From: Patescibacteria group bacterium
Lineage (GTDB): Bacteria; Patescibacteriota; Microgenomatia; Levybacterales; UBA12049
DNA length: 64,000 nt
Assembly: GCA_038062115.1 (NCBI GenBank)
Contig: JBBTXS010000008.1
Coordinates: 12,484 to 76,483, forward strand
Direction: 5' to 3'
A program made the position numbers and the translations under genes. Positions within the stretch are counted from its first letter, which is position 1. Every line of letters begins with the position of its first letter. The notes under the pieces are model-generated. The model was not told the origin of the DNA and did not search any database. It saw only the letters and a program-made list of their open reading frames with translations. This document shows positions 3,956 through 36,856 of the stretch, in pieces.

Positions 3956-5086
3956 ATGAAAATAAGACTAATCATCCTTGCGATCCTAATTTTGCCTTTA
4001 TTGATAACTATAAATAACTCTACATCTCATAAAAACATAGAGTCCTCCACTCGCCCAGTTACAGTAAACAACAAAAAAGTCTCAAGCGAAATTTCTGCAA
4101 TTGTAGAAACTAACAACCTTGATAAACAAGTAGCCCTCTACAAAAAATTAATCGCTAGGGTTGGACCAGAAGCTGCTCAAGAAGAACTTTTGTACTCAGG
4201 TTTATCTTTTGATGGACAAACTCACCTCCTCAATCATACGGTTGGGGATTATCTGTACGATAAATACAAAACTTCTGGTCTTGCTTTTTGTAAAGATTAC
4301 TTTTTATCTTCTTGCTACCATGGTTTTGTTATAAGAGCAGTGGCCGATGGAGGATTTGATGCGCTTAAAGAAGTTATGTCTGTCTGTTGGCAAAAAGGAG
4401 AACCTGTAGCAGTACAATGCTCTCATGCAATTGGACACGGGCTTTTAGCCTGGATTGGCTATGCCAATTTAACAAAAGCTTTAAATGATTGTGACAAGTT
4501 AAGCCAAGAGTCAAAAGATTTTCCGCTTTACAATTGTCACGACGGCGTATTTATGGAAAATATTTGGGCAGTTCACGAGAATGGTAAACTATCTAAAGAT
4601 AGTTGGTTAAGTGAAGATCCTGTATACCCTTGCAACGATCCAAGAATAGATAGTAAATATATTCAAGCCTGTTGGTCAAATCAACCCATGCGAATGTATC
4701 AAATGTTTAAGGCAGATCTTGGAAAAGTTGGAGAAGAGTGTCTAAAGCTTACTGATAACACATACAAAATTACATGCTTTGATGGTTTGGCTCGCCAAAT
4801 CCACCCTTTAACCAAAGGAAATGCTCAAGAAGTATTCAAACTTTGCTCTACTATGCCAAGCGTTTGGGTTGATCCTTGTATAACATCTATTGCAAAGGCT
4901 GCTTTTTCGGTTGGCGACACCACAATTCCATTCAAACTTTGCTCTCAAGTCCACGAAAACTCAAAAGCATCCTGTTTTGAAACTCTTGCAGATATTATAC
5001 AAGCTTATACAAGAAACAATCTTAAAGAACGAAAAACATTGTGCGACAAAATTCCTAATATTATCTTTAGACAAAAATGCACATAA
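3956..5086 (+). CDS. Secreted Cys/His-rich protein, one copy of an unassigned domain (CYHG / CxHGxGHG / GVFME / YPCN motifs)
   Basis: 376 aa. Signal anchor MKIRLIILAILILPLLI. Motifs SCYHGFV, QCSHAIGHGL, NCHDGVFMENIW, PVYPCN, then repeated Cys-pair units. Same motif order as two segments of the ORF at 5259..7778. Confidence 0.65.
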   Translation: MKIRLIILAILILPLLITINNSTSHKNIESSTRPVTVNNKKVSSEISAIVETNNLDKQVALYKKLIARVGPEAAQEELLYSGLSFDGQTHLLNHTVGDYLYDKYKTSGLAFCKDYFLSSCYHGFVIRAVADGGFDALKEVMSVCWQKGEPVAVQCSHAIGHGLLAWIGYANLTKALNDCDKLSQESKDFPLYNCHDGVFMENIWAVHENGKLSKDSWLSEDPVYPCNDPRIDSKYIQACWSNQPMRMYQMFKADLGKVGEECLKLTDNTYKITCFDGLARQIHPLTKGNAQEVFKLCSTMPSVWVDPCITSIAKAAFSVGDTTIPFKLCSQVHENSKASCFETLADIIQAYTRNNLKERKTLCDKIPNIIFRQKCT

Positions 5087-7818: not shown

Positions 7819-10650
7819 TTAAGGACTACAAGGTCTACGGATAAGAGTGCCCCACAATGTCTGTAGAAAGCCATGATCGCAAGTAGCAACACCTTGCACT
7901 GGCGGGGTTGCGTAGCCAGATGGACTGCCGTAGGATGGGGTTCCGTAACTTGGTGTTCCATAGCTTTCTGAAGGAGTTCCATACGAAGGTGTGCCATACG
8001 ATGGTGTTCCATAGGATGATGGTGTTCCGTAGGCAGGGGTTCCATAGCTAGGACTGGGATAGCTGTAGCCAGTACTCGGTGTGGGATAGGCATAGGATGG
8101 GCTTGGATAGCTTGGTGTCCCATATGTTGGCGAAGGATAGGAATAACTAGTTCCAGGCGTTGGATAAGCATAGCCAGTAGATGGAGAAGGATAGCTGGTA
8201 TTTGAAGGTGTTGGATAGTAATAGGCTGTACCTGGTGATGGATATGTATAACTTGAACCTGGGGTTGGATATGAATAGCCTGTACCAGGAGTTGGGTATG
8301 GATAGGTCGTTGTTGTCCCCGGTGTAGGATAGGAATAAGGCGTTGGATAAGAAGGAGTTGTGTAATTCGGGTTTGACGGCGTGTAATAAGTCGGCGTGTT
8401 GTAAGGAGAATAATAAGGAGAAGTATAGGTAGTTGAAGGCGTAGAATAATCTGAAGTTGGCGATGTATAACCGCTTCCTGGAGTATAGTAGGGACTTGTG
8501 TATGTGCCGCCAGGCGTATAGTAGGATGGTGAGTAGTAGCTAGGTGTTGAATAGTTTGGAGTTACGTAAGGTGTGTAATAGCTTGGGCTGGTGTAATTTG
8601 ATCCCTCCGGAGGAGTGTAATATTGAGGGGTAGAGTAAGGTGTGTAGTAGTAAGGCGTTGGATAAAATCCGGGTGTGTAATAGGATGGTGTCGGATAAGA
8701 AGCCGGCGAATAGTAGCTGGGAGAAGTATAATTGCTGCTTAATGGTGGAGTTGGATAGTTTGGAGTGGTATAGGCAATAGGCGATGTATAGGTAGGAGGT
8801 GTTGGATATGTACCCGGTGTGTAATAATTTGGTGTTGAATAAGGAGGAGGTGGTGTGTAATAGCTTGGGCTAGTATAGGTTGAGCCTATCGGAGGAGTAT
8901 AGTAGGTAGGTGTTGTATAAACAGGCGGCGTGAAGTAAACAGGAGTTGTATAGCCGCCGCCAGTGTATGGCGTGTAATATTGAGGAGTTACGTATGGTGG
9001 AGGCGTTGAATAAGAAGGCGTTGTGTAATTTGAGCCAACGGGAGGAGTATAATAATAGGGTGTTGTATATTGGGGAGGAGTGTAATAGTAAGGTGTTGTA
9101 TAGCCGCTTCCCACAGGAGGTGTGTAATAAGTTGGGCTTGCATAAGTCGGAGTTGGATACTCACCTGTTGGAGTAGAATAATTGCTCCATGGAGTATAGT
9201 AGTTAGGCGTTGTATAGTTTGATCCTATCGGAGGTGTGTAGTAACTTGGGGTAGAGTACATACCAGGCGTATAGTATTGAGGTGTTGTATACGTCGAACC
9301 AACTGGCGGAGTGAAGTAAATAGGAGTTGTGTAGAAGTTAGTTGTAGGTGGACTGGCATAGATTACGTCTGCAGGAGGTGTGTAGTAGGTATCAGGAACA
9401 TAAATATCCAAGGGTCTTGGCGACCTGGAATTAAATCCTTCACATTGACCAGGATTTTCTTTACAATAGTCATAACAAGCACCAGGTGAATCACAATTGC
9501 CCATCTCCGGCTTTGGCTCAAATTTAACGTCAGTTCCGGGAGTGTAGTAGAGGTAAGGAGTATAGTCATCGGTTGGCCGTGAGGCGCTGGCATCAAAACC
9601 CTGACAGGAATTTGGATTAGCTTTACAGTAGTCGTAACATTCGCCTGGTGTTTTACAATTGCCCATCTCCGGTCTTGGTTCAAAATAGGCGCTTGCTATT
9701 TCCGGTGTAATTCCAAGAGGAAATGGACCATCGTTAATACAAGTATTACCATTCCAAAGTCCTCCAGCTTCTGCGCAATAGACTGCCAGTTTGTAATCCG
9801 GTATCTTTGTGCAAGAACCTCCGGGCCCGTGAACCTCATTTTGGCCGCAAGCGATAGGAACATAAACACCATTAGATCCAGGAGAGTAGCTTCGACATTC
9901 TTTAGGATTTTGTTCGCAGTAAGTTCGGCAGCCTGCTTCACTAGTACATCCACCAGGACCAGTATAGGGTCCGCTGGAAACAGTACAAAGTGTAAAATTA
10001 GCTGGATCAGAGCAGAAAGCACTGCAAGTGCCGGGAGTTTGGCAGCCGCCAGGACCCTCAACAACTTTCCCACCCAAAAGTCCTATTCTATCCGCAAAAC
10101 TACTACACTTATCAGCATTTGCAGGATTATCACAGAAAGTTGAACAAGTTGCGGCTGAATCACAACCTAGAACTTCTTTAGCAATAGTTAAGTATTCTGG
10201 TTTATCAGGTTCGCCAACATAACCTCCCGGAATATCACTCCTTTTGGCAAACGTACTACACGCATCAAAATTTGCTTCTTGTGAACAAAAATTCACACAA
10301 CCATCTCGGGAATTACATCCTAGCTCGCTTTGGGCATCCTGATAGAATTCATCCGTTGCATAAGTTGTCACATCATCTTGATAAAAACCGTTTTTCTTGG
10401 CAAAACTGCTGCAGCTGTTATAATTAACAGGATCTTCGCAATAATTTGTACATTCTTTTAAGTTATTACAGTCACCCAACTCCTTAACAGGAAAGTTAAG
10501 GTTAAAACTTCCCCCGGTGGCGGTGGTTGGTTGGACTGTTGGGCTTTGTGAGAAAACAGAAGTTGTTACAAAAAACAATACAAACACTGCCGCTAACGTC
10601 AAAATCAATGTTCTGATAGAATTTAATATTAAAGTTGTATTTATTGTCAT
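7819..10650 (-). CDS. Large surface protein: seven CX5CX3CX6/8C modules plus a ~500-aa Tyr/Thr/Pro/Ser-rich repeat region
   Basis: 943 aa. N-terminal hydrophobic signal/anchor (LILTLAAVFVLFFVTTSVFS). Modules such as CNNLKECTNYCEDPVNYNSC, CNSRDGCVNFCSQEANFDAC, CKTPGECYDYCKANPNSC. From about residue 410 it is nearly pure YYTPP / YTTP / SYGTP low complexity. Confidence 0.75.
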   Translation of the reverse strand: MTINTTLILNSIRTLILTLAAVFVLFFVTTSVFSQSPTVQPTTATGGSFNLNFPVKELGDCNNLKECTNYCEDPVNYNSCSSFAKKNGFYQDDVTTYATDEFYQDAQSELGCNSRDGCVNFCSQEANFDACSTFAKRSDIPGGYVGEPDKPEYLTIAKEVLGCDSAATCSTFCDNPANADKCSSFADRIGLLGGKVVEGPGGCQTPGTCSAFCSDPANFTLCTVSSGPYTGPGGCTSEAGCRTYCEQNPKECRSYSPGSNGVYVPIACGQNEVHGPGGSCTKIPDYKLAVYCAEAGGLWNGNTCINDGPFPLGITPEIASAYFEPRPEMGNCKTPGECYDYCKANPNSCQGFDASASRPTDDYTPYLYYTPGTDVKFEPKPEMGNCDSPGACYDYCKENPGQCEGFNSRSPRPLDIYVPDTYYTPPADVIYASPPTTNFYTTPIYFTPPVGSTYTTPQYYTPGMYSTPSYYTPPIGSNYTTPNYYTPWSNYSTPTGEYPTPTYASPTYYTPPVGSGYTTPYYYTPPQYTTPYYYTPPVGSNYTTPSYSTPPPYVTPQYYTPYTGGGYTTPVYFTPPVYTTPTYYTPPIGSTYTSPSYYTPPPPYSTPNYYTPGTYPTPPTYTSPIAYTTPNYPTPPLSSNYTSPSYYSPASYPTPSYYTPGFYPTPYYYTPYSTPQYYTPPEGSNYTSPSYYTPYVTPNYSTPSYYSPSYYTPGGTYTSPYYTPGSGYTSPTSDYSTPSTTYTSPYYSPYNTPTYYTPSNPNYTTPSYPTPYSYPTPGTTTTYPYPTPGTGYSYPTPGSSYTYPSPGTAYYYPTPSNTSYPSPSTGYAYPTPGTSYSYPSPTYGTPSYPSPSYAYPTPSTGYSYPSPSYGTPAYGTPSSYGTPSYGTPSYGTPSESYGTPSYGTPSYGSPSGYATPPVQGVATCDHGFLQTLWGTLIRRPCSP

Positions 10651-10950: not shown

Positions 10951-11210
10951 CCAATTTTGTAACCGTTCAGGAGTTGACAAAACCTTCCTTGTCATTCCCA
11001 TGAAAATGGGAATCTATATAAATAACGTTCTGGATTCCCGCCTTCGCGGGAATGACATTGGAAACTCGTGGACGGTTACCCAATTTTGTAACCGTTCAGG
11101 ATTTGACAAAGGAATTGTCATTGCGAGCGTAGCGAAGCAATCTCATGAGATCGCCACGGCTACTTCGTAGCCTCGCGATGACAACGTTTTGTCAACTCCT
11201 GAACGGTTAC
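10951..11210. repeat. Composite of nested palindromic elements between divergent genes
   Basis: A ~30-nt unit CCAATTTTGTAACCGTTCAGGAKTTGACAAA occurs at 10951 and 11079 (direct) and as TTTGTCAACTCCTGAACGGTTAC at 11187 (inverted). The units bracket two hairpin elements: GTCATTCCCATGAAAATGGGAATC...GGATTCCCGCCTTCGCGGGAATGACA (10991..11057) and GTCATTGCGAGCG...CCTCGCGATGAC (11117..11182). Confidence 0.8.
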
Positions 11211-11269: not shown

Positions 11270-14200
11270 ATGGCACGTATTTTAACTTATCATAATCCCA
11301 CTCCAAAGGAACTAAAGCAAAACCCTTTAAAATCTCTCTGGGAACAGTTTAAGTCTCTTGATAAATTTACAAGAGCCTTTATTATTGTAGTTTTAGCTAT
11401 TATTGTTGTAACTCCATATATTATTTCTCAATATCAAATATTTAATAGTCGTGGGGAGATTGACTTAACTAAAAGCGGAACTGTTGATGAAAATGGTATA
11501 TTTAACGAATATTTTGTCTGGAAAGGCGATCATGGCGCGATTATCGGAGGAGGTACTTCCAATACGGTATGGTGGAATGCTCACAATTGGGATGCTCGAG
11601 GGGATACTGCCCACAATGCGTTTGATGGAGGACCGAAAGGAGGTCAGGGAGGGGACCATATTGATGTCCATGTAGGCTCTCTAGATCTCACCGATGGAAA
11701 GCGGCTTAACAACAAATACGTGATCGGAGGAGACGGAGGTCCAGGAGTTGGAACCATGCATTTGGATATGGAGACGATATCGAGTGCTCGATTGAGAAAT
11801 CCCATGCTCATTTCTGGTGGCAGTCCAGGGATTGTAGAATTCAGAGCACCAACTTCTTTGACCAGTGGTCATTGGTGGGAGGTTGCGATAGCGCCAGCGA
11901 ATAAACCTGTGACAGGAGCAGAATTTACTGCTGCACCTTCGACTTCCGATGACATTGATGGACAGCAAGGACCAGGACATCGTCCTGCGGAAGATTCGAT
12001 CAACTTCGTTGTGTTTGGAAGAGACGATGTGCCCTGTACTAGTGGTTGGGGAATCAACACCGGAATCACAAAATCGATTGGGGGAAGTACAACAGACTCT
12101 CTCGGACCCATTATTACAACTGGAGCTAATCCTACAACGAGTGCGGACAAACTTTTTGCTTGGCGTCTTGAGTACTATCCCGACAAAATGAAACTCTTTG
12201 CAGATTTGAATGAAGATGGCACAAAAGAACTTCTCCACACGTTTAATGTTTCAGTTCCATGGAGCGAAGTAAATGTGTACCTTATGGGCGCTGCATATCA
12301 GGCGTATCATCATCCGCAAGGATTAGGCGACTGCCATAATCTAGGCCAAATCCGAGAGCTTCCATGGAAAGAAGTACGAATTGGTCCAGTAAAATACGCA
12401 AAGACAAGGGCTTATCCAAAGGAACAAGGTACCGATCGGGTTCAAAAGAAGACGGGATGGATGGGATTTGATATGCGAGACAGCCAGCGATTTGGCGTGG
12501 TAAATGGTATTGAACAGCCAAATGCTGCTTCCTACGACGAATGGAAATCTGCTGCGTTTTGTAGTATGGACACATGGTTCTGCGACAATCCAGTAACTAC
12601 CAAAACATTAACCTTCAATATTCCTGCAGAAGATGCAAGTGGCATTACTCACGCACAATTTATCTATGATATTCGATACAATGGAACCGCCACTATTGAA
12701 GTTAATGGAAAAGCCGTTCCTGGGTCTCTTCTTACGCAATCAAGCGTACCAGGACACGGAACCAATGGAGAGAAACATTGGGCGCAAAGATCAAAAGAGG
12801 TTGATCTTTCTTTCTTTCAGGCAGGGACGAATACGCTTGTCGTAAAAATGTCAGGGAGCGTGATGATGGATCGGCTTCAATTTGAATTTGGGTATGGGAA
12901 AGCTGCAGTCGTAACAGGATCTCCAACACCAACACCTACTCCAGTCTCTACACCAACACCCACTACAAAACTTACTCCAACACCGACTTCTCCGCCACCT
13001 ACCTCTCCACCTGGGAAAATCGTGTGTTCGGTTTCTGCTTTAGATCAACCAAAGGCAGTACCTCCTATGTGTAATTTGAATAAAGGGGAAGCAGCTCAAG
13101 TAACCCTTAAGGATGGAAGTAAACGGACGGTAACACTCGTTGATGTGCAGAAAGCAATTACTGAAAGCATTGTTGCAGACCAGGGACCATGTAACTTTAC
13201 CTTTCTTGCGAAGGCAACAGTGAATGTAGACGGAGAGCTTCGTGAGATGGGCGTTGCGATGGACCAGCCATATACGGTTGCAAAAGGGGTACGTATGTAT
13301 CCAATGAGATCCAAGATCTTTAATTCCGACAGTTGCTGGTCAGCGACATGGAATTCTGATCTTACCTTGATGTTCACCGATGCTTCTGCGCCGGCATTTA
13401 GTACCTCTGGGTATCACTACCCTCTTGAACAATTATGGGGACTCAACGAACACGCAGGCCGTGAGGCATATTCTGGTCGCCATCATGACGGCTATGATAT
13501 TGGCAGTCCGAATCAAGTGAGCCCCCCAGCAAAACTCTTAGCGCACATAGATGGCAAGATTTGGAGTTTTGGGCCAGTCTATGGTGGAGCAGAAGCAACA
13601 AATAATCGAATTGACCTTGCTCCAGCAGGTAATCAATGGGCAGACACGGGAGCCAGCTATTTCCACGCAGCCTCTCTAGCGTCTGGGGTATCGGTAGGGA
13701 GTTTGGTAACAAAAGGACAGTGGATTGGAAATGCAGGGCTTATTGACTCTCAAGGATATCCTCATCTTCATTGGGTTGGGGGTGAAGGATTGTTGATCAA
13801 CGAGTTTCCGTTCTTGAAAGAGAGCTATAACGCCACGATGATAACAAAATCCAAGTATCAAGGATATCCCAAAGACTGGCTTCTCATTGGTCCATTCTCT
13901 GACATAAATACAAATCGTTTATTCAATGATCATCTCGCTGGTCAGGAAACTACGATACAGCCATCAGAGGGTACAGTGACAAACGGAAAAACATGGAAAG
14001 GATACGACAATCTGGTAGTAGGTGCTGTTGATTTTGCGAGTGCGTTGAGCCCAGCCCCCTACAGTGGGTACGCAGGAAAAGTAAAGGACAATTACAAGAA
14101 CAGCATTGGGTATGCGCATATCTATATTAATTCTCCTATAGGGCAATCTGTTCAGCTTTGGTTAGGATACAATGATGGACTTCGTGCATGGTTGAATGGA

Positions 14201-16192
14201 AGCCTTGTGCATAGCGACAACGCGAATTATCTCTACGATTCCAAGAAAGGAAACGACATGGTACCAGATCAGGCAAAGATCAATATCAATCTTAATGCAG
14301 GATGGAATAGATTGCTCTTAAAGATAAGTCAAGATTCTAACGATATTGTTAGTGGTGGTCACTGGAATACTCCTCACTCATGGAAATTCTCCTCAAGAGT
14401 AGTTGATGCTTCTGGCAATCCTGTTAATAACTTAACCTATTCGCTTTCTCCTGGTGGTGTTGTGTCTACTCCAACACCTACTCCAATTTCAACTCCTACT
14501 CCTACTCCTACTTTTACTCCTTTAACCCCAACCCCAACTACGCCTCCAGGTATAGGAGGATTGCCTTGGCTTAAAACTTCTGGAAATAAAATTCAAACCG
14601 CAAGTGGACAAAATGTTGTGCTAAGAGGAGCAAATATTATGAGGTCTGAGTGGGTAGGGAATATGGATTTTGAGAAGAAAGCTTTTCCAGAGGTAAGTCA
14701 CAATTGGAAAGGTAATGTTATGTTAAGAGGTTTTGCTTCAGATCCAGTAAACAGCAATAATTCAACTTATTTAGGTTTTCTTGATGAAGAGCAAAAGCTA
14801 GCGGAAGCAAATAATATGTATATTATTTTTGCATGGCGGTCTAACGCTATAAATGGCGACCAGCCTACCATGCCAAATGATAGCGCACAACAGGCTTTGG
14901 TTAAATTGGCAACTAGGTATAAAGGCAAATCCAATGTAATATACGCTTTACAAGTAGAACCTCATGATGTTTCTTGGAGCACTCTTCTTCCTCGTTTTAA
15001 TAGTATGGTTACAGCTATTAGGCAAGCCTCTTCGCCAAACAAACCAATAATTATGATTCCTGGAACACAATGGAGTAGATACGTTCATTGGGCTATTACT
15101 CAACCTGTTACGGCAGATGGTGGAATAAATATTGTATATAAATCTCATCCTTACGATAATAGCCCTGAGTTCCAACAAGAATTTTTGGATACATACAATG
15201 CAAATTTGCCTGTATTTATTGGTGAATTTGGAACTGGTGCTTTCATGACCCAAGAGGATGTAAATACTTTGCTTACAATTACTCATGGGAAAAACATCTC
15301 ATGGGCAGCGTGGTTGTTTGATTCGGAAGGTTGTCCATGCTTATTAACCGATAGAACAACTTTTAATCCTACAAACCCCTATGGTGTATCTGTAAAAAAT
15401 GAAATGCTTACTACTCCTCCAATTCCTAATCTATCTCCAACCCCAACCCCCACACCACCTTCCACAGTAACCATTCAAGGAAGACATGTTGATAGTCTGG
15501 GGAATACACTTGTGTTGGCAGGACAAAAAGTAACACTTAATACTGGAGCGTCAACAACTGCTTCTCCAACTTGGTTCTTTAACACCTTAACTCCTGGCAC
15601 CTACACTGTAACAGCAGCTAATGTTACAGGCTATGCAATTTCTTACTCAGTCTGCGTCAATTGTACTAAACATGACTTTTACACTACAGGAAATTCTTTA
15701 ACTGTTAGTTTACCAGTTGGTGGAAACTATGCTGATATTTACTTTAAATATACACCAGTGGTACCAACCCCAACACCAACTCAGGCTTTAACTCCAACTC
15801 CTACATTTATTCCAAAACCTACTCCTACTCCTACTCCTACACCTACACCTACACCTACAGGTAAACCAATTCTAACTCCTACATTTATCCCAATTCCATC
15901 CCCTACATCTATACCTAAACCTACACCGACTCCTAGACTATATGAAACTCCATCCTATGGTTCACCCTCGTACGGTTCACCCTCGTACGGTACGCCTGGC
16001 TACGGAACTCCATCCTATGCTACACCAAGATCTGGAAAAGTTGGTGATCTAAACGGAGATGGAAAAGTAAATATATTTGATCTATCAAGACTTCTTAGAA
16101 ACTGGGGTAAAAGTGGAGTAGGCGATCTAAACAATGATGGAAAAGTAAACATATTTGATCTATCAATACTTCTTAGAAACTGGACTGGATAA
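11270..16192 (+). CDS. Multidomain surface enzyme: N-terminal TM anchor, unassigned region, M23 peptidase, jelly-roll-like domain, GH5 glycosidase, prealbumin-like domain, PT linkers, C-terminal dockerin
   Basis: 1640 aa. M23 motifs RHHDGYDIG (HxxxD) and GYPHLHW (HxH). GH5 string [42 protein letters not shown] aligns from memory with Cel5A-type NVIYEIANEPNG, GTGTWSQDV, FHFY, VSEWGTS. Duplicated dockerin segment [21 protein letters not shown] / [21 protein letters not shown]. Several PTPTPT linkers. Confidence 0.8.
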
Positions 16193-29476: not shown

Positions 29477-29830
29477 AATGTAGTCTCTTCATCCTCCTTT
29501 GGATGAAAGTTTAATATAAGGAATTCCTTAAACTACTTGAGTAGAAGCGGAAAAGTTTTTTTACCCCCTCTTATTTATAGATTAGGTAGAGGCCAATCGT
29601 CATTAGTAAAATTGCTATTGCTTTAATGCCCAAAGTTTTTGTGCTAAGTTCCTCTTTAAGTATTTTTGGCACCTATCAAAAGTTTATCTACAATATTATC
29701 CCCTGCCCATAAAGCCCGAGATATAAGAGTAAAAATTACCCAATTCATTCCTATGTAATTATATCAAGAATTCGGATTCAGGGAAATTTTTGAGGCTTGT
29801 TTTCTGTCACCTATAATAGTCTTATAGTTT

Positions 29831-29901
29831 TCGGGGAACGGAGAATTGAACTCCGACCACACCCACCCCATGGGCGCATTCTACCGTTAAACTACTCCCC
29901 G
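29831..29901 (-). tRNA. tRNA-Pro (anticodon GGG)
   Basis: Minus-strand sequence CGGGGAG TA GTTT AACGGTA GAAT G CGCCC ATGGGGT GGGTG TGGT CGGAG TTCAATT CTCCG TTCCCCG A folds as a 71-nt cloverleaf. 7-bp acceptor stem (one G-U), T arm CGGAG/CTCCG with TTCAATT loop, anticodon loop AU-GGG-GU. No encoded CCA. Confidence 0.85.
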
Positions 29902-29930
29902 TTCTGTAATGCAGAATTAAAAATTACCTC

Positions 29931-29958
29931 TTGTATTTTATCACAAAAGTATTACAAT
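29931..29958 (+). promoter_or_regulatory. Candidate promoter for recA
   Basis: TTGTAT (29931..29936), 16-nt spacer, TACAAT (29953..29958). The ATG is only 9 nt downstream, implying a very short or absent leader. Confidence 0.35.
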
Positions 29959-29967
29959 GGGCATGCT

Positions 29968-31056
29968 ATGGGCAGGACTCCTAATTCTCAAAAAAACAAA
30001 CTTCCAAATGGCCCAACGGAATCATCGCAAAAGCTTGCTGCAGTAAGACTTGCAATGGAGCAAATAGAGAAACAGTATGGTCGTGGTTCTATAATGCGGC
30101 TTGGAGAGGCAGGACAAAAGTTTGATATTTCGGTTATCTCGACAGGCTGCCTTCCTTTAGATTTGGCACTAGGCGTTGGTGGAGTACCAAGAGGAAGAAT
30201 TATAGAAATTTTTGGACCCGAAGCATCTGGGAAAACAACGGTTTGTTTATCTATTATTGCTCAGGCGCAAAAGCACGGCGGCATTGCTGCATTTATAGAT
30301 GCCGAGCACGCCCTGGATCCTTTATGGGCGCAAAGATTAGGTGTCAAGCTTGACGAGCTTTTGATTTCCCAACCTGACACAGGGGAACAGGCGCTTGAAA
30401 TTGCCGAAAGTCTTATTCGAAGCGGTGGTATTGATGTTTTGGTTGTAGATTCGGTAGCAGCACTAGTACCAAGGGCAGAGATAGAAGGAGAAATGGGCGA
30501 TGCGATGATGGGACTTCAGGCGAGGCTTATGTCTCAGGCATTGCGGAAACTAACAGGAGTTATTTCTAAATCAAAAACAGTTGCTATTTTTACTAATCAG
30601 TTGCGTCAAAAAATAGGCGTAATGTTTGGCAATCCCGAGACAACAACTGGCGGTTTGGCTCTAAAGTTTTATGCATCTATCCGTATGGATGTTCGAAAGA
30701 TAGAAACGCTTAAAGATGGGGATAAAGCGATTGGGTCGCGGCACAGAGTAAAAATAGTTAAGAATAAAGTTTCTGCTCCTTTTAGAATTGCGGAGTTTGA
30801 TGTAATGGGAGATACTGGCATATCGCGTGAGGGGGGAATTGTAGATGTTGGGGTTGAGATGGGAATTATCCAAAAGTCCGGAGCATTTTATAAATTTGTA
30901 GATTTGATGTTAGGACAAGGTAAAGAAGCAGTAAAGATGTTTCTTAAGGAAAAGCCAGACGTTGCAAAGAAAATTGTTGATGAGATTTTAAAGAAAAATA
31001 AAACTTCAGGAACTCCGGTTGAGGTGGGGGTTGAGGAAAAAGAACTAGCCGCGTAA
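29968..31056 (+). CDS. recA: Recombinase RecA
   Basis: [19 protein letters not shown], Walker [41 protein letters not shown]. Start set at ATG 29968 (MGRTPNSQ) because the ORF-track N-terminal extension is antisense to the tRNA-Pro gene. Confidence 0.95.
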
Positions 31057-31065
31057 AATTCCCTC

Positions 31066-31095
31066 TTGACACCAGAATAAATAGTCGGGTAGTAT
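31066..31095 (+). promoter_or_regulatory. Candidate promoter for lexA
   Basis: TTGACA (31066..31071), 18-nt spacer, TAGTAT (31090..31095), 8 nt upstream of ATG 31104. Confidence 0.35.
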
Positions 31096-31103
31096 ACGAA
31101 TAT

Positions 31104-31742
31104 ATGAATCTGCCCGTTACTTCTCGTCAAAAACAAATGCTGTCCATTATTTACAATTATATAAAAAATACTGGTTATCCTCCGACATTTGAAGAAATGC
31201 GTAAACAATTAGGCGTTTCCTCTAACCAGTCTGTTTTAGATCTTCTTAATAAGCTTGAAAAACATAGAATAATTAAACGCAATGAATCGGTTGCTCGTAG
31301 CATTGCAATTTTACCATTAGGGTATGAAGTTCTTGGAAAACCTCCTCTTGTTCCTTTTTTGGGAATTTCCCATGCTGGTTCCCCTATTACGGCAATTGAG
31401 ATTCAAGGCGAGTGGCAAACGCTATCTCCAAATGTTGCGCGATTAAATGAAGAAGTATTCCTTATTAGAGTTTCTGGAGACTCTATGATTAACGCTAGCA
31501 TTGAGGATGGAGATATAGTTTTGGTTAAAAATCAAAAAGAATTTGTTTCAGGAGACATTGTTTTGGCCGACATTGATGGAGAATCCGCAATAAAGCGGTT
31601 TATCTCCCAGGATAAGCCCCCATATTTGTATCTAAAACCTGAAAATCCAAATTATCCAATTATACATTTCACGAGCACGGTGGAAATGAAAGGAAAAATC
31701 ATATCAGTGTTAAAAGGCGGCCAGTGGCTATCTATAAACTAA
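31104..31742 (+). CDS. lexA: LexA repressor (S24 peptidase)
   Basis: 212 aa. N-terminal winged helix (GYPPTFEEMRKQLGVSSNQSVLDLLNKLEKHRIIKR), Ala-Gly cleavage site in ISHAGSPI, catalytic Ser in VSGDSMINA and Lys in SAIKRF. Confidence 0.85.
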   Translation: MNLPVTSRQKQMLSIIYNYIKNTGYPPTFEEMRKQLGVSSNQSVLDLLNKLEKHRIIKRNESVARSIAILPLGYEVLGKPPLVPFLGISHAGSPITAIEIQGEWQTLSPNVARLNEEVFLIRVSGDSMINASIEDGDIVLVKNQKEFVSGDIVLADIDGESAIKRFISQDKPPYLYLKPENPNYPIIHFTSTVEMKGKIISVLKGGQWLSIN

Positions 31743-31746
31743 ATAT

Positions 31747-33693
31747 ATGCCAACAGTCAAGCAGAATAAGGTACTTGGAGTTTTAGATAAAATATTTAAA
31801 GATCCAAGCGTTGTTTATGGCCTAAAAGAATTTGAGGGCATAAACTTTGAAGAGGTATTGTACGTATGGGAAGAAGACAAACGTTTCTATATAAAGGATA
31901 TAAAATCGGGTAATCCAAGAGTTGTCTTTGATGAGCAAAAACAAAGCAGCAAACCCGAAGAGATTATCCGTCAACTATGGCTTTATAAGCTGCACAGCAA
32001 TCTAAAATATCCACTCGATCGGCTTGAAACAGAAAAGAGTATCCACTTTGGAAGGGAAATTCACGCAAAAGCAGCAGACATAATCGTTTATAAAGAAGAT
32101 AAAGTTACCCCTTATATCATTGTCGAAGTAAAAAGCCCAAGTGAGGAAAAAGGAATAGATCAGCTAAAAAGCTATCTTAATGCGGAAGGATGTGAAATTG
32201 GCATTTGGTCAAATGGTATTGATCGGGTTATTCTATACCGTAACTATCCGAATCAATTTGAAGATACACTTTCAGAAATCCCACCAGCAGATAAAACAAT
32301 AGACGATATTTTAAGCGAGAAAAAAACACTTGGAGATACAGATTCGAAATATGATCTTAAGAGTGCCATAAAAATTATGGAAGAGTTAGTTTTAGCCAAC
32401 GCCGGCGTTGATGTTTTTACTGAAGTGTTTAAGCTAATTTATGCGAAGTTATATGATGAGATAGAAGCAGAAAAAAGACTGGATAACGAGATATTGTTTC
32501 GTAAATATAAAGATCCTCAAAAAACGTACTCTGCTATAAACAGTTTATTTAGAAGTGCTATTAGTAAGTGGCCAGATATTTTTTATGAGCAGGAAGTTAT
32601 TCGTCTATCGCCAGAGCACTTGTCGGTAGTTATAGGAGAGATGGAAAAAGCAAAACTTTTTGGCGCGGACATTTCGATTATTGATGAAGCGTTTGAATAC
32701 CTTATCCCGGAAGTTGCTAAGGGCAAAAAAGGACAATATTTTACTCCGCGTCATGTTATTGCCATGGCGGTAAAAATGCTCAACCCCAAACCAGACGAAT
32801 ATGTTATTGATCCCGCGGCAGGTTCTGGAGGATTTCTTATTTCTGCCATGCGTTGGGTTGATGAACAGTATACTAAAAATAACCAATCTAAACAAGAATA
32901 TGCTCAGCAGTATTTATATGGAGTAGACTTTGCCGACGAGACAGCAAAAGTGTCGCGAGCACTCATGCTTATTGCTGGAGACGGACGTTCCCATCTTTTT
33001 AAGCTTAACTCCCTTGATCCAAGAGAGTGGCAGGGAGAAAAGGACGAAAAATTGCACGCGAGACGAGAACTTCGTCAAAGACTGCTTAGGTATGAAGAGT
33101 ATGACGAAAAAGAGCAAAACGAAAAAACGTTCAAAAATTTTTCTTTTGACGTTTTACTTACTAACCCGCCATTTGCTGGAGAATTAAGAGATCCTGGGCT
33201 TTTAAGGCAATATGAGTTTGGCAAAAAGAACGGGAAGTTAGTGAATAAAGTTGAGCGTCATATTTTATTTATTGAGCGGGCGCTAGAGTTTGTAAAACCA
33301 GAAGGCAGAGTTGCAATAGTGTTGCCGCAAGGGGTTTTCAATAATACCAATATGGAATACATCCGTGAATGGTTGTTTGACAAAGCGCGAATACTTGCAG
33401 TCGTAGGCCTTCATGGTAATACGTTCAAGCCGCATACAGGAACCAAAACCTCGGTTTTATTCTTACAAAAATGGAGCGAGGATGAACAACCGCTAAAAGA
33501 CTATCCCATTTTTATGGCTGTTTCTAAAAAAGCAGGTAAAGATAACTCTGGAGAGTATGTTTATAAAAAAGACGAAAGCGGAAATTTTGTCTACAACGCC
33601 AATGGTCGCAAAGTCCTCGATCACGACCTCGACCAAATCGCAGAAAACTTTATTAAGTTTGCAAAAGATCAAGGATTTAGTTTTTGGAGGTGA
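31747..33693 (+). CDS. N6-adenine DNA methyltransferase with N-terminal PD-(D/E)XK (HSDR_N-type) nuclease domain
   Basis: 648 aa. Nuclease core AADIIVY...YIIVEVKSP (D...ExK). AdoMet motif VIDPAAGSGGFLISA. Catalytic motif LTNPPFAG (NPPF). Starts 4 nt after the lexA stop. Confidence 0.8.
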   Translation: MPTVKQNKVLGVLDKIFKDPSVVYGLKEFEGINFEEVLYVWEEDKRFYIKDIKSGNPRVVFDEQKQSSKPEEIIRQLWLYKLHSNLKYPLDRLETEKSIHFGREIHAKAADIIVYKEDKVTPYIIVEVKSPSEEKGIDQLKSYLNAEGCEIGIWSNGIDRVILYRNYPNQFEDTLSEIPPADKTIDDILSEKKTLGDTDSKYDLKSAIKIMEELVLANAGVDVFTEVFKLIYAKLYDEIEAEKRLDNEILFRKYKDPQKTYSAINSLFRSAISKWPDIFYEQEVIRLSPEHLSVVIGEMEKAKLFGADISIIDEAFEYLIPEVAKGKKGQYFTPRHVIAMAVKMLNPKPDEYVIDPAAGSGGFLISAMRWVDEQYTKNNQSKQEYAQQYLYGVDFADETAKVSRALMLIAGDGRSHLFKLNSLDPREWQGEKDEKLHARRELRQRLLRYEEYDEKEQNEKTFKNFSFDVLLTNPPFAGELRDPGLLRQYEFGKKNGKLVNKVERHILFIERALEFVKPEGRVAIVLPQGVFNNTNMEYIREWLFDKARILAVVGLHGNTFKPHTGTKTSVLFLQKWSEDEQPLKDYPIFMAVSKKAGKDNSGEYVYKKDESGNFVYNANGRKVLDHDLDQIAENFIKFAKDQGFSFWR

Positions 33694-33707
33694 CACAATC
33701 TTATTGT

Positions 33708-33756
33708 GTCATTCCCGCGAAACTTGTCCTCGAGAAATCGAGGAGCGGGAATCCAG
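33708..33756. repeat. Palindromic element (GTCATTCCCGCG...CGGGAATCCAG variant)
   Basis: Has the ends of the GTCATTCCCGCGAAAGCGGGAATCC hairpin family, with an inserted inner hairpin CCTCGAGAAATCGAGG. Lies between the methylase stop and the GIY-YIG gene. Confidence 0.7.
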
Positions 33757-33765
33757 AAAAATCAT

Positions 33766-34119
33766 ATGAAAAACTATTGTGTCTATATATTAGCAAGCAA
33801 AAGAAATGGAACGCTCTATATCGGTGTTACCAACAATTTAGAGAGAAGAATATATGAACATAAAAATAATATCATTAAAGGCTTTACTGCAAAATATAAC
33901 GTTCATCAGCTTGTTTATTTCGAGCAAACAGTAGATATTAATTCAGCTTTGCAAAGAGAAAAGCAGCTTAAGAAATGGAATCGGAAATGGAAACTTGCTT
34001 TAATCGAAAAAGAAAACCCCAATTGGGAGGATTTATCGGAGAGCTGGATGCCCGATCAGAGCTTGCCCCGTACGCGATACGGGGTCGGGCATGACAAAAA
34101 GGAAGCGGGGATTTATTAG
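33766..34119 (+). CDS. GIY-YIG nuclease family protein (small stand-alone type)
   Basis: YCVYILASKRNGTLYIGVTNNLERRIYEHK carries the GIY and YIG beta-strands, Arg and Glu. Start set at ATG 33766 (MKNYCVYIL) because the upstream part of the ORF-track model translates the palindromic repeat. The last ~20 codons also run into a palindromic element. Confidence 0.8.
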   Translation: MKNYCVYILASKRNGTLYIGVTNNLERRIYEHKNNIIKGFTAKYNVHQLVYFEQTVDINSALQREKQLKKWNRKWKLALIEKENPNWEDLSESWMPDQSLPRTRYGVGHDKKEAGIY

Positions 34120-34130
34120 TAGCTCTTGGT

Positions 34131-34321
34131 GTCATTCCCGCGAAAGCGGGAATCCAGAGAAAGATTACGACTGGATTCCCAATCAAGTTGGGAATGACAA
34201 AGTGATAGAAGGATAAATTAAACGATTTAGTTTTTGGAGGTAGCGAGGCTGTCATTCCCGCGAAAGCGGGAATCCAGAGAAAGAAGACAACTGGATTCCC
34301 AATCAAGTTGGGAATGACAAA
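34131..34321. repeat. Two tandem copies (120-bp period) of a double-hairpin palindromic element
   Basis: GTCATTCCCGCGAAAGCGGGAATCCAGAGAAAGA..AC..CTGGATTCCCAATCAAGTTGGGAATGACAAA occurs at 34131..34201 and 34251..34321. Each copy is followed by a copy of the 18-nt methylase 3' end. Confidence 0.85.
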
Positions 34322-34353
34322 GAGAGAGCGAGGGTTTAGTTTTTGGAGGTAAT

Positions 34354-34917
34354 ATGACAAAAGATGACCTTGAATTAGCAAAACAAGAATTTACTCGTGA
34401 TAGAGATCTTTGGACAGACTTATTACTTAAAAGACGTTTTTACTACCAAGATTTACTTACAAGAGTTACCGATCGACAAGTTAATCATATACTAACACTT
34501 ACTACTATTGCTGTCGCTTTAATTTCTATAGTTATTCCGATTACAAACTTGCCATTTTTTTCTATAATTCCATTTTGTTTGTTAAGTCTTAGTATCATTC
34601 TGGGAACTAGTTTAGTTTTATATACAATATTTCATGATAAAAATGGTATTCCCAAGACAAGAGATGCTGAGGTAGAAATTTATTCCAAATTCCAGTCAGC
34701 GGCCAACAGCAATTTTAACAAGGCTTACTCTGGAAATCTTACTTGGAATGATGTGAAGGATTATTTTGATTTAAGAAAAACGATCGAGGAAGATTTATCT
34801 AAGTTGAAGCCCAATAAAATTCTAGAGAAATTAAAAGATACTGTATACATCTCTTTTCTTGTTACCTTCTTCTTAGGATTAATAATTTTTTTGGGCTTAT
34901 TCTTTTATAAATATTAA
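34354..34917 (+). CDS. Three-TM membrane protein of unknown function, translationally coupled to the S subunit
   Basis: 187 aa. Helices ILTLTTIAVALISIVIPI, FSIIPFCLLSLSIILGTSLVLYTIF, VYISFLVTFFLGLIIFLGLFFY. A ~75-aa soluble loop. Stop and next start overlap as TAATG at 34915..34919. Confidence 0.6.
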   Translation: MTKDDLELAKQEFTRDRDLWTDLLLKRRFYYQDLLTRVTDRQVNHILTLTTIAVALISIVIPITNLPFFSIIPFCLLSLSIILGTSLVLYTIFHDKNGIPKTRDAEVEIYSKFQSAANSNFNKAYSGNLTWNDVKDYFDLRKTIEEDLSKLKPNKILEKLKDTVYISFLVTFFLGLIIFLGLFFYKY

Positions 34918-36293
34918 TGATTACCTTTTCAATAATCCAAAAATCTCAACTTGAAGGCGCTTATCGGCTAGATGCGGAATATTATCAGCCAGAATATTTA
35001 AAGGTAATAGAAAATATTAAAAGCAGAGAATTTCGTACCCTAGAAGATTTTGGTTGTAACGTTGTCAGTGGGCCTTTTGGCTCATCCCTTAAAAGTGAAG
35101 CTTATTTGGAACAAGGGATTCCATTTATTAGGATTAACGACTTAAAAGAATTTTTTATTCAGGAGGATAGTTTAGTTTACATTTCCGAAGAGGATAATAA
35201 TAGATTAAAACAATCTCAGCTTCATCCTTTTGATTTAGTTCTATCTAAAGTGGGAAATACCATTGGTATAGTATCAGCAATAACAGAAGAATTAGGTATT
35301 AGCAATATAAGCGAAAATAACATTGGTATAAAATTTAAAAATTCAAACCTAACTTTGGCTCATAAGTTATTTTTATTAACCTTTTTAAATTCCAGTTTGG
35401 GATACTTGCAGGTAAAAAGGAGTGTTAGCGGTAACGCACAACCTAAATTAAACATAAGCGATATTTCTCAACTGATAGTTCCTTCACCACAAATAAATCT
35501 TCTTAAAAAAATTGAAGAATTAATACTTGAAGCAAAACAAAGCTTGGATAGTTCAAAACTTTTATATGGGCAAGCCGAAAATTTGCTTTTGGAGGAGTTG
35601 GGGTTAAAGGATTTTCAGGCAAAAGATGATTTGAGTTTTGTTGTAAATCTTTCAGATGTAAAATCTGCAAATCGCGTAGACGCTGAATATTTTCAACCGA
35701 AGTATCAAAAGCTAGTCGAGCAGATTAAAAAGCAAAACCATAAACAACTAGGAGAATTAGTTTCAATGAAGAAAGGATTTGAATCTGGAAGCGAAGCATA
35801 TCAAGAAGATGGAAGATTATTTATTAGGGTAAGCAGTCTCTCTAAGTCTGGTATTGATAATAAAGATCAAAAATATTTAAGCGAAGAATTATATGAAAGA
35901 CTGCAAAAAGATTTTCAACCAGGACTTGGAGAAATTTTACTAACAAAAGACGCAACACCGGGAACTGCCTACGTTTTGAAAGAACCAATTGATGGAATTA
36001 TTTCTGGTGGCATTTTGCGTCTAAAAGTAAAAGGCGATACAGATCCTGAATATTTGGCGCTTTGTGTAAGCTCTATAATAGGGCAGATGCAAGCAGAACG
36101 AGATGCAGGAGGTTCGGTTATTGCTCATTGGAAGCCCGAACAGATTAGAAATTTATTGATGCCAATTTTACCAAAAGAAGTACAGCAGAAAATTGCTGAT
36201 TTGGTGAGGAAATCACATGAGGCAAGGAAAAAATCAAAAGAGCTTTTAGAGGAGGCAAAACGTAAAGTTGAGGAAATGATAGAAAATGGGTGA
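34917..36293 (+). CDS. hsdS: Restriction-modification specificity (S) subunit with two target-recognition domains
   Basis: 458 aa. Internal duplication (RLDAEYYQPEYLKVIENIKS / RVDAEYFQPKYQKLVEQIKK). Central and C-terminal coiled conserved regions (LLKKIEELILEAKQSLDSS... / QQKIADLVRKSHEARKKSKELLEEAKRKVEEMI). Confidence 0.8.
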   Translation: MITFSIIQKSQLEGAYRLDAEYYQPEYLKVIENIKSREFRTLEDFGCNVVSGPFGSSLKSEAYLEQGIPFIRINDLKEFFIQEDSLVYISEEDNNRLKQSQLHPFDLVLSKVGNTIGIVSAITEELGISNISENNIGIKFKNSNLTLAHKLFLLTFLNSSLGYLQVKRSVSGNAQPKLNISDISQLIVPSPQINLLKKIEELILEAKQSLDSSKLLYGQAENLLLEELGLKDFQAKDDLSFVVNLSDVKSANRVDAEYFQPKYQKLVEQIKKQNHKQLGELVSMKKGFESGSEAYQEDGRLFIRVSSLSKSGIDNKDQKYLSEELYERLQKDFQPGLGEILLTKDATPGTAYVLKEPIDGIISGGILRLKVKGDTDPEYLALCVSSIIGQMQAERDAGGSVIAHWKPEQIRNLLMPILPKEVQQKIADLVRKSHEARKKSKELLEEAKRKVEEMIENG

Positions 36294-36759
36294 TTTTGAG
36301 AAGTTTTATAATATTGCGCTTCGGTTTTTGGCATATCGTCCTCGGTCGGAAAAAGAAGTAAGAGACTATCTGACGCGAAAAAAAAATGAGTCTTCAATTA
36401 TTGAGAGAGTTATTGTCAAACTAAGAGAACAAAAGTTTGTTGACGATGAGGAGTTTGTGAAATGGTGGATCGAACAGCGATCTGCGTTCAAAACTAAAAG
36501 TATTAAGTTCATAAAAATGGAGCTACAACAAAAAGGCGTAGCTCAAGAAATAGCAGATCGCATAATTCATAATTCAGAATTCATAATTCAGAATGATTTG
36601 GAACGAGCGAAGAAGTTAATAGAAAAACGGCTAGAAAGGGTTAAGGGTTTATCTAAGCAGGAAATTTATCAAAAACTAGGCTCGTATCTTGCGCGAAGAG
36701 GGTTTGATTGGGAGACGATAAAACAATCCATTGACGAGGTGATTTTAAAAGGAGTATAA
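36286..36759 (+). CDS. recX: RecA regulator RecX
   Basis: 157 aa. FLAYRPRSEKEVRDYLTRKK plus three-helix repeats. Overlaps the S-subunit gene by 8 nt. Contains a heptamer array at 36562..36596. Confidence 0.75.
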   Translation: MGDFEKFYNIALRFLAYRPRSEKEVRDYLTRKKNESSIIERVIVKLREQKFVDDEEFVKWWIEQRSAFKTKSIKFIKMELQQKGVAQEIADRIIHNSEFIIQNDLERAKKLIEKRLERVKGLSKQEIYQKLGSYLARRGFDWETIKQSIDEVILKGV

Positions 36760-36833: not shown

Positions 36834-36856
36834 AATCCGTCATATGACGGATTTTT
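36834..36856 (+). terminator. Palindromic hairpin plus T tract after recX
   Basis: Perfect 20-nt palindrome AATCCGTCATATGACGGATT followed by TTTCT. This is the first terminator-like structure seen after recA. Confidence 0.5.

Follow-up and report, generated by a model that had tools for sequence, protein, structure and literature searches.

The subject of this analysis is a gene, here called X, in a 64-kb window (the whole 64,000-nucleotide stretch that was analysed) of contig JBBTXS010000008.1 from a Patescibacteria group bacterium. X encodes a predicted membrane protein and lies between M, the gene for a nuclease-methylase fusion, and S, the gene for a specificity subunit, in a same-strand gene run that reads recA, lexA, M, a 660-bp insert, X, S, recX and rny. 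The evidence below is best explained if X is optional cargo, carried at the M-S junction of a Patescibacteria restriction-modification (RM) cassette that is BsaXI/BcgI-like, lacks HsdR and is probably under LexA control.

An earlier note on this DNA had taken X for an integral, translationally coupled member of a type I RM operon. The common orientation and the translational coupling stand, whereas the comparison of gene families (at least 120 clusters of M against 13 of X) speaks against an integral member, and the type I assignment falls, since HsdR is missing and M joins a nuclease to a methylase in the manner of BsaXI. Patescibacteria (the candidate phyla radiation, CPR) rely heavily on RM for defence, and nearly all that is known of their biology comes from sequence-based inference. 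To our knowledge, the ultra-small Patescibacteria largely lack CRISPR.

X is a conserved gene for a predicted three-transmembrane protein

Comparison with its homologs establishes X as a real, conserved gene under purifying selection. A protein-database search recovered 13 clusters of close homologs with 44-99% identity, and an exhaustive hidden Markov model search widened the family to 62 clusters. The alignment of the close clade contains 46 invariant columns, and the window gene and its 89% identical ortholog in L010, one of the loci fetched for comparison, give a dN/dS of 0.16.

Kyte-Doolittle analysis placed three transmembrane (TM) helices at about residues 47-66 (TM1), 73-93 (TM2) and 164-185 (TM3), leaving an N-terminus of 46 aa and a TM2-TM3 loop of 70 aa, in agreement with the three-TM open reading frame (ORF) of 187 aa that the earlier note had described. 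These two soluble parts contain 9 and 13 K/R residues, respectively, while the TM1-TM2 loop has only 6 aa and no charges. Since both soluble parts are K/R-rich and the short loop is uncharged, the N-terminus is predicted to be inside and both soluble parts to be cytoplasmic. The three-TM pattern is retained in 54 of the 56 family members of normal length. The AlphaFold model (mean pLDDT 87) consists of four long helices (residues 3-64, 68-126, 131-150 and 155-186), in which a helical stalk is predicted to be built from the two cytoplasmic segments, the N-terminal helix (1-46) and the loop (94-163). The N-terminal helix is the most conserved region of the protein, with a mean column identity of 0.86 as compared to 0.70-0.79 in the TM helices.

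M and S form a type IIB-like restriction-modification module

Judged by sequence, the module flanking X is an RM fusion plus S of the BcgI/BsaXI (type IIB-like) kind, because the nuclease-methylase fusion is colinear with BsaXI, its catalytic residues are conserved and S is separate. The N-terminus of M holds a PD-(D/E)xK nuclease domain (HSDR_N_2) with E96, D111, E127 and K129, and the protein also has a gamma-class N6-adenine methylase, whose NPPF motif at 473 is kept in L004, L006 and L008. PADLOC matched M to MTase_I at E = 2.9e-170, and the best match in the PDB was RM.BsaXI (8w0p, E = 2.3e-35), with an alignment that runs colinearly from the nuclease domain into and along the methylase. 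In BsaXI, E73, D90, E105 and K107 were found by mutagenesis to be needed for cleavage and are said to be conserved across type IIB (PMC11997821). These residues align to E96, D111, E127 and K129 of M, and all four orthologs compared (the window, L004, L006 and L008) have them.

The type I reading of the operon is thus ruled out: no HsdR was found in the 64-kb window or in the cassettes L004-L010, and M is a BsaXI-like fusion. The ORFs of at least 700 aa in the window encode FtsK, an AddA/UvrD-like protein, EF-G, RpoC, a GH5 protein and two proteins with no Pfam match. Type-I-like traits are present in the HsdM-type gamma N6-adenine methylase and in the two target-recognition domains of S. The system resembles BsaXI and BcgI in its fused N-terminal nuclease, helical connector and gamma methylase, in the separate type-I-like S and in the lack of HsdR. 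Unlike the RM protein of BsaXI (916 aa), the window M, with 648 aa, has no long C-terminal paddle. The known type IIB enzymes make double-strand cuts on both sides of a bipartite site. Neither a membrane protein nor a LexA gene is described for BsaXI/BcgI, and the words 'membrane' and 'operon' are absent from PMC11997821.

The N-terminus of S (MITFSIIQKSQLEG) is conserved in all cassettes, and overall S identity between cassettes is 36-55%. Between the window and L010 (962-2317), S is only 39% identical while X is 89% identical, which suggests that specificity domains are swapped rapidly in cassettes that are otherwise conserved.

Proteins like M, combining HSDR_N_2 and N6_Mtase, are extremely common in Patescibacteria (6284 at E<=1e-60 in the protein database), and many carry the source name 'Type I Restriction Enzyme' despite their BsaXI-like fusion architecture. 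M had no match in viral contigs. If the present assignment is true, a widespread HsdR-less cassette labelled 'type I' would really be a type IIB-like nuclease-methylase with its S.

A lexA gene and a LexA-box-like promoter head the operon

The conserved unit is lexA-M-X-S. In the window, lexA ends 4 nt before M, and it also lies directly 5' of M in L004, L006 and L008. Outside the unit, the genes 5' of lexA and 3' of S vary (recA/recX, a zinc-ribbon gene, DUF2130, BrnT, dinB), and no recA was found 5' of lexA in the other loci. The encoded LexA has a winged-helix DNA-binding domain and an S24 peptidase, with the A91-G92 cleavage site, the GDSM serine and the catalytic K164 all present.

The putative operator of the window, within the promoter spacer, has a degenerate left half-site (Table 1). 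The same arrangement of -35 element, palindrome and -10 element occurs 5' of lexA in L004 (perfect CTGACCATATGGTCAG, 3963-3978), L006 (195-210) and L008 (455-470); the spacer palindrome of these three loci reads CTGAC-N6-GTC(A/G)G, of the CTG-N10-CAG class, and the -10 element reads TAnnAT. Among the fetched loci, the palindrome occurs at these lexA promoters only. Within the window the motif is not enriched and is absent 5' of recA, so that the window LexA could not be shown to be a global SOS repressor.

On the + strand, no terminator-like site was found between M and X, including the 660-bp insert, or from X to the hairpin that closes the operon; apart from that hairpin, the + strand shows just one match, a weak stem of 5 bp within M at 32397. 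From the LexA-box-like promoter, the LexA motifs and the lack of an internal + strand terminator, we can reasonably infer SOS-type control of the whole operon, X included.

LexA-headed SOS operons are known as lexA-imuA-imuB-dnaE2 cassettes or as lexA with nearby division inhibitors. The present operon is like them in having lexA first, a CTG-N10-CAG-type palindrome between -35 and -10, and SOS gene neighbours. It is unlike them in that the cargo in the window is a restriction enzyme and a membrane protein, and in that the motif is missing 5' of the window recA. Searches of the literature for LexA-controlled RM in Patescibacteria found nothing relevant. If the arrangement is what it seems, a cassette behind lexA and a LexA-box promoter, seen in the four loci with a visible upstream side, would imply that DNA damage or incoming DNA can induce restriction, an unusual form of control.

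Table 1. Positions of the operon elements around X in the window
Feature	Position	Strand	Description and basis
Operon promoter	31066..31095	+	TTGACA, 18-nt spacer, TAGTAT (promoter scan)
LexA-box-like putative operator	31073-31088		CAGAATAAATAGTCGG, degenerate CTGAC-N6-GTCRG, in promoter spacer
lexA	31104..31742	+	212 aa; Pfam LexA_DNA_bind 5.4e-13, Peptidase_S24 8.1e-26
M (RM fusion)	31747..33693	+	648 aa; Pfam HSDR_N_2 1.7e-21, N6_Mtase 6.7e-40
M 3'-end 16-mer, three copies	33676-33691 (original); 34226-34241 and 34335-34350 (extra)		TTTAGTTTTTGGAGGT; repeat analysis
M-X insert	33694..34353	+	660 bp, mobile; repeat analysis
GIY-YIG ORF in M-X insert	33766-34119		Pfam GIY-YIG 2.4e-18
Two REP-like units in M-X insert	34130-34208 and 34250-34328		79 nt each; repeat analysis
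X	34354..34917	+	ATG start, 187 aa; predicted three-TM inner-membrane protein, outside any described family
S specificity subunit	34917..36293	+	458 aa; Pfam Methylase_S (2 stretches), PADLOC Specificity_I 9.8e-54 full length
recX	36286..36759	+	Pfam RecX_HTH1/2/3; 8-nt overlap with S stop; last gene before terminator
Terminator-like hairpin closing operon	36834..36853	+	8-bp stem, then T-run

X is joined closely to M and S at an insertion hot spot

The X stop codon TAA (34915-34917) and the S start codon ATG (from 34917) have one A in common, forming the TAATG overlap to which the earlier note had pointed. In L010, L007, L006 and L004 the X-S junction is a 1-nt or 4-nt overlap or a 2-nt gap, and across the loci the spacing mostly ranges from a 4-nt overlap to a 2-nt gap, with about 73 nt in L005. 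The M-X spacing in uninterrupted orthologous loci ranges from a 4-nt overlap with M to a 9-nt gap. When the insert of the window is taken out, the junction reads TGG AGG TAA T ATG, and X would then start 1 nt past the M stop, as the earlier note had also proposed. The repeated 16-mer at this junction comprises the final codons of M (…FSFWR) plus the Shine-Dalgarno sequence of X, and occurs 3 times where 0 occurrences are expected by chance.

The M-X junction is an insertion hot spot (33676-34353 in the window, 190-398 in L010 and 1-289 in L012). Its cargo consists of the GIY-YIG ORF with the REP-like units in the window, another piece of 170 bp in L010 and a NYN-like ORF in L012. In the window and L010, an extra copy of the last 16-26 nt of M stands directly before X, which preserves both the C-terminus of M and the translation of X. 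L012 likewise keeps a copy of the M 3' end before X. The REP-like hairpin (GTCATTCCCGCGAAGGCGGGAATCCAG) recurs at 11030-11056 on the - strand of the window, far from the RM operon, and the element is thus a dispersed repeat.

X is an optional part of the RM cassette

The order M-X-S or X-S was found in seven distinct Patescibacteria loci (the window, L010, L004, L006, L007/8/9, L005 and L012), and homologs of X therefore do recur between M and S, a point that the earlier note had wished to see checked. In an eighth close-clade context (L001-3 and L011), X stands alone, preceded by GATTTAGTTTTTGGAGGTAA and followed by some 30 nt from the 5' end of S. Because vestiges of both M (3' end) and S (5' end) persist, the solitary X descends from the same cassette. 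In L001 it has promoter-like and terminator-like sites of its own.

On the other hand, the same protein database holds at least 120 full-length clusters of M with 69-100% identity to the window M, against the 13 clusters of X. The M proteins of X-bearing loci are 62-73% identical to the window M, and most M genes that are equally close or closer must therefore lack X. In the nearest cultured relatives (plasmid genes of Klebsiella, Trichormus and Picosynechococcus; 41-47% identity), S directly follows M or the proteins form an RMS fusion; where S is adjacent, M ends in the same FSF(W/F)R motif. The identities of X and M are also incongruent: the window and L008 have 73% identity in M and 57% in X, while L005 and L006 have 79% in M and 44% in X. 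The distribution of homologs thus marks out X as an optional, patchily distributed add-on that is not integral to the RM system.

The closest enterobacterial M-S pair, on a Klebsiella plasmid (L027, NZ_LR890357.1), is accompanied by a gene (8275-9066) for a 263-aa protein with no Pfam match; the gene has a 1-nt overlap with the S stop, and two DUF262 genes come after it. It may represent another kind of accessory, carried by an equivalent RM cassette.

Distant homologs of X occur in mixed neighbourhoods

Distant X homologs (20-40% identity) share the architecture of X and carry an N-terminal motif, EF…W.DL…R…Y.DL..R..[DE]R, which is conserved irrespective of the neighbours, including in homologs without an RM partner. 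The homolog P0018 in L018, 35-40% identical to X, lies 20 nt 3' of a gene for an N6_N4_Mtase + Mrr_cat fusion, a restriction enzyme unrelated to M, and is followed by another small three-TM protein. P0021 (L021) lies between a NYN gene and an integrase, P0023 (L023) between secY and adk, P0073 (L015) before polysaccharide genes and P0064 (L016) among miscellaneous genes. A NYN-type (PF01936) gene stands immediately 5' of X homologs in two unrelated contexts, L012 (1-195) and L021 (5257-5850), where X is 63% and 30% identical to the window copy, respectively. The NYN fragment of L012 and the NYN protein of L021 share 45% identity over 33 aa, a stretch too short for a Pfam match.

The source names of the X homologs are Patescibacteria and Moranbacteria, and X had no match in viral contigs (IMG/VR) or plasmids (PLSDB). 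In L018, a 137-aa protein with several hydrophobic, TM-like segments is encoded 3' of the X homolog (4440-4853); its weak match to SLATT_5 (E = 0.0057) is probably compositional.

Sequence similarity to SLATT effectors is matched by reversed sequences

Nothing significant was found for X in Pfam, PADLOC, NCBIfam or the PDB sequence profiles. A Foldseek search of the PDB brought up nothing beyond generic bundles of long helices (BAR domains, for example); every match had E>=0.19, and none had E<=0.001. The earlier note, which had recognised no family, is borne out on this point; the structure prediction that it had called for yielded the model described above, but no significant Foldseek match.

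Weak matches pointed in one direction. In the viral library BFVD, the top Foldseek match of X was a SLATT 2TM effector (E 0.044, probability 0.98, TM-score 0.37), and the X family gave weak matches to RTasSLATT, PycTM and 2TM effectors in PADLOC, to SLATT_5 in Pfam and to SLATT_1 and SLATT_5 in NCBIfam; the family member P0016 aligns with the reverse transcriptase (RT)-associated SLATT models of PADLOC over nearly its full length. As a control, all 60 X-family sequences were reversed, which preserves their composition. PADLOC RTasSLATT gave 10 matches in the forward direction (best E 3.1e-4) and 4 in reverse (best E 4.5e-6), and Pfam SLATT_5 matched 4/60 forward sequences (best E 0.016) and 3/60 reversed ones. 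Among the NCBIfam models, SLATT_1 matched 6/60 forward and 4/60 reversed, SLATT_5 matched 4/60 and 1/60, and SLATT_4, which is not among the 25 families listed for the forward sequences, matched 11/60 reversed ones. Pfam DUF2207_C, with 16 forward and 15 reversed matches, is likewise compositional. Since reversed sequences match the same models, the sequence similarity to SLATT is architectural or compositional rather than a sign of homology.

SLATT proteins have 2-3 TM helices and are mobile, often serving as accessory pore-forming effectors in defence operons (PMC9226505). X resembles the SLATT, 2TM and PycTM effectors of CBASS, Pycsar, RADAR and DRT in its size class (about 170-190 aa) and in having 2-3 TM helices flanked by cytoplasmic helices. 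It differs from SLATT and PycTM proteins in that its matches stay below the curated cut-offs, the TM-score is 0.37, and a cyclic-nucleotide or RT partner is lacking: no SMODS, SLOG, cyclase or RT gene lies beside X, whose neighbours are lexA, RM, S and recX.

Possible roles of X

The role that we favour, tentatively and with considerable doubt, is that of an accessory effector which is portable, acts on the membrane and is expressed together with a type IIB-like enzyme under SOS control. In this role X would be comparable to the SLATT accessory proteins with 2-3 TM helices in RADAR, DRT and CBASS, or to the PrrC of EcoprrI. X would be transcribed from the lexA promoter with its LexA-box-like operator, and would probably be induced by DNA damage or incoming DNA. 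It would be translated by coupling, through the Shine-Dalgarno sequence within the last codons of M, and S would start on the X stop codon. X would thereby be made in step with the restriction enzyme and might act on the membrane when restriction is challenged, either by permeabilisation (abortive infection) or by interference with DNA entry. A contact of X with RM and S, a membrane activity, SOS control and a defence phenotype are what we infer here.

Several observations support X as a portable effector: the order M-X-S recurs, the clusters of M exceed those of X, the identities of the two are incongruent and solitary X is retained. A second, unrelated restriction enzyme adjoins the X homolog of L018. 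The NYN genes 5' of X homologs in L012 and L021, together with the integrase of L021, are in line with such an effector, as is the top BFVD match to SLATT proteins, which are themselves mobile accessory effectors. Within the cassette, X most likely has a self-contained membrane activity that has been co-opted, rather than being a dedicated RM subunit, because its N-terminal motif is kept without RM neighbours and X is optional.

The earlier note's analogy was PrrC, whose gene lies in the EcoprrI type Ic RM locus and whose product is a soluble tRNA (anticodon) nuclease of the ATPase type. Like prrC, X is a patchily distributed non-RM accessory gene inside an RM operon, co-expressed with the RM subunits. 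Unlike PrrC, X has three TM helices, no enzymatic domain and no sequence relation to it, and its host system is type IIB-like. In a PrrC-like guarded module, a latent toxin would be bound by the RM subunits and set free by a phage anti-restriction factor; the solitary X of L001 argues weakly against such an RM-dependent antidote.

Further observations weigh against the accessory effector. Homology of X to SLATT or PycTM was rejected as evidence, because the scores of the reversed controls equal or exceed the forward ones, and no significant sequence or structure match links X to SLATT, PycTM or any other effector family. No sensor or nucleotide-binding domain is recognisable in X. A solitary, apparently expressed X, as in L001, would be unexpected for a toxin restrained by RM and S. 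Once X has been inserted, the translation of S depends on the 3' end of X, so that a conserved order does not by itself prove a functional link. The sample is also small, with about 12 independent X contexts examined. Beyond the orthologous clade, most homolog contexts (secY-adk, polysaccharide and miscellaneous genes) are not defence ones, which comes close to the finding that the earlier note had named as telling against a defence role.

We consider the strongest competing explanation somewhat unlikely: X may be a passenger whose independent membrane function is unrelated to restriction, and which is kept since the translation of S needs its 3' end. Candidates would be an envelope or stress protein, or a protein of the superinfection-exclusion type, that landed in the recombination-prone M-S junction. 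The junction does take unrelated inserts (the GIY-YIG ORF with its REP-like units, the 170-bp piece and the NYN-like ORF), and a passenger would fit with the many M homologs that must lack X, the persistence of X without M and S, the incongruent identities, the secY-adk and polysaccharide neighbours of distant homologs and a motif that is conserved whatever the neighbours. It accounts less well for the eight orthologous-clade contexts, all of which derive from the same slot in the same RM cassette, for the tight linkage of a distant homolog to a different restriction enzyme and for the conserved coupling on both sides of X. If X is only a passenger, the locus would still be a clear recombination and insertion hot spot within an operon, where coupling is kept by duplication of the upstream 3' end.

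A broader form of the accessory effector, in which the new three-TM family is a portable module that plugs into single-chain restriction enzymes and couples SOS-inducible restriction to a membrane event, is in our view unlikely. It would amount to a two-layer defence, the membrane event being permeabilisation when restriction is blocked or an action at the site of DNA entry. The enzymes concerned would be the BsaXI-like RM + S of the present cassette and the N6_N4 methylase-Mrr fusion of L018, and such modules would make up a new class of RM-associated membrane effectors in Patescibacteria.

X could also be a membrane tether or adaptor, whose stalk would bind (RM)2S at the inner membrane so that incoming DNA is restricted on entry and the chromosome is spared. 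Precedents exist in EcoKI, which associates with the membrane, and in membrane-coupled nucleases such as Zorya. In favour of a tether, X is translationally coupled to both M and S, which suggests that they are produced together, its conservation is highest in the cytoplasmic N-terminal helix, and it has no enzymatic motif; its cytoplasmic domain is not strongly basic and looks protein-binding rather than DNA-binding. Most orthologous RM + S systems, however, work without X, the N-terminal motif is equally conserved in homologs that have no RM partner, X has been retained after the loss of M and S, and it does not co-diverge with M, all of which makes a tether quite improbable.

The division inhibitors of the SOS response are, as a rule, small membrane proteins with genes close to lexA, and X as an SOS-induced protein of this kind (like YneA, SidA or SosA), unrelated to restriction, would suit an operon headed by lexA and a LexA-box-like operator, located in the window between recA and recX and adjoined by dinB in L005, but it is very improbable, given that X lies 2 kb from lexA, wedged between M and S, that its distant homologs have no lexA nearby, that the known inhibitors are mostly single-pass or have periplasmic domains while X exposes almost nothing outside the cell, and that X has no homology to any of them.

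If X couples restriction to the membrane, it would be an RM accessory of a new type and would define a new family of membrane effectors, present in a minority of cassettes at a fixed slot. Accessory genes embedded in RM loci are a known theme; what is new here is an unnamed membrane-protein family as such an accessory, and literature searches on membrane proteins in hsdM/hsdS loci found nothing relevant. The LexA-headed, HsdR-less RM cassette and its self-repairing insertion hot spot arguably deserve as much interest as X.

Other features of the window

A tRNA-Pro(GGG) gene (29831-29901, - strand) lies within the 5' extension of the called recA ORF (29797-31056), and the real start of recA is therefore downstream, at about 29965. 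The two long ORFs with no Pfam match encode proteins of 839 aa (5259-7778) and 943 aa (7819-10650), both on the - strand. On the + strand, 11270-16192 encodes a 1640-aa protein with GH5 cellulase and dockerin domains, which is notable for small-genome Patescibacteria.

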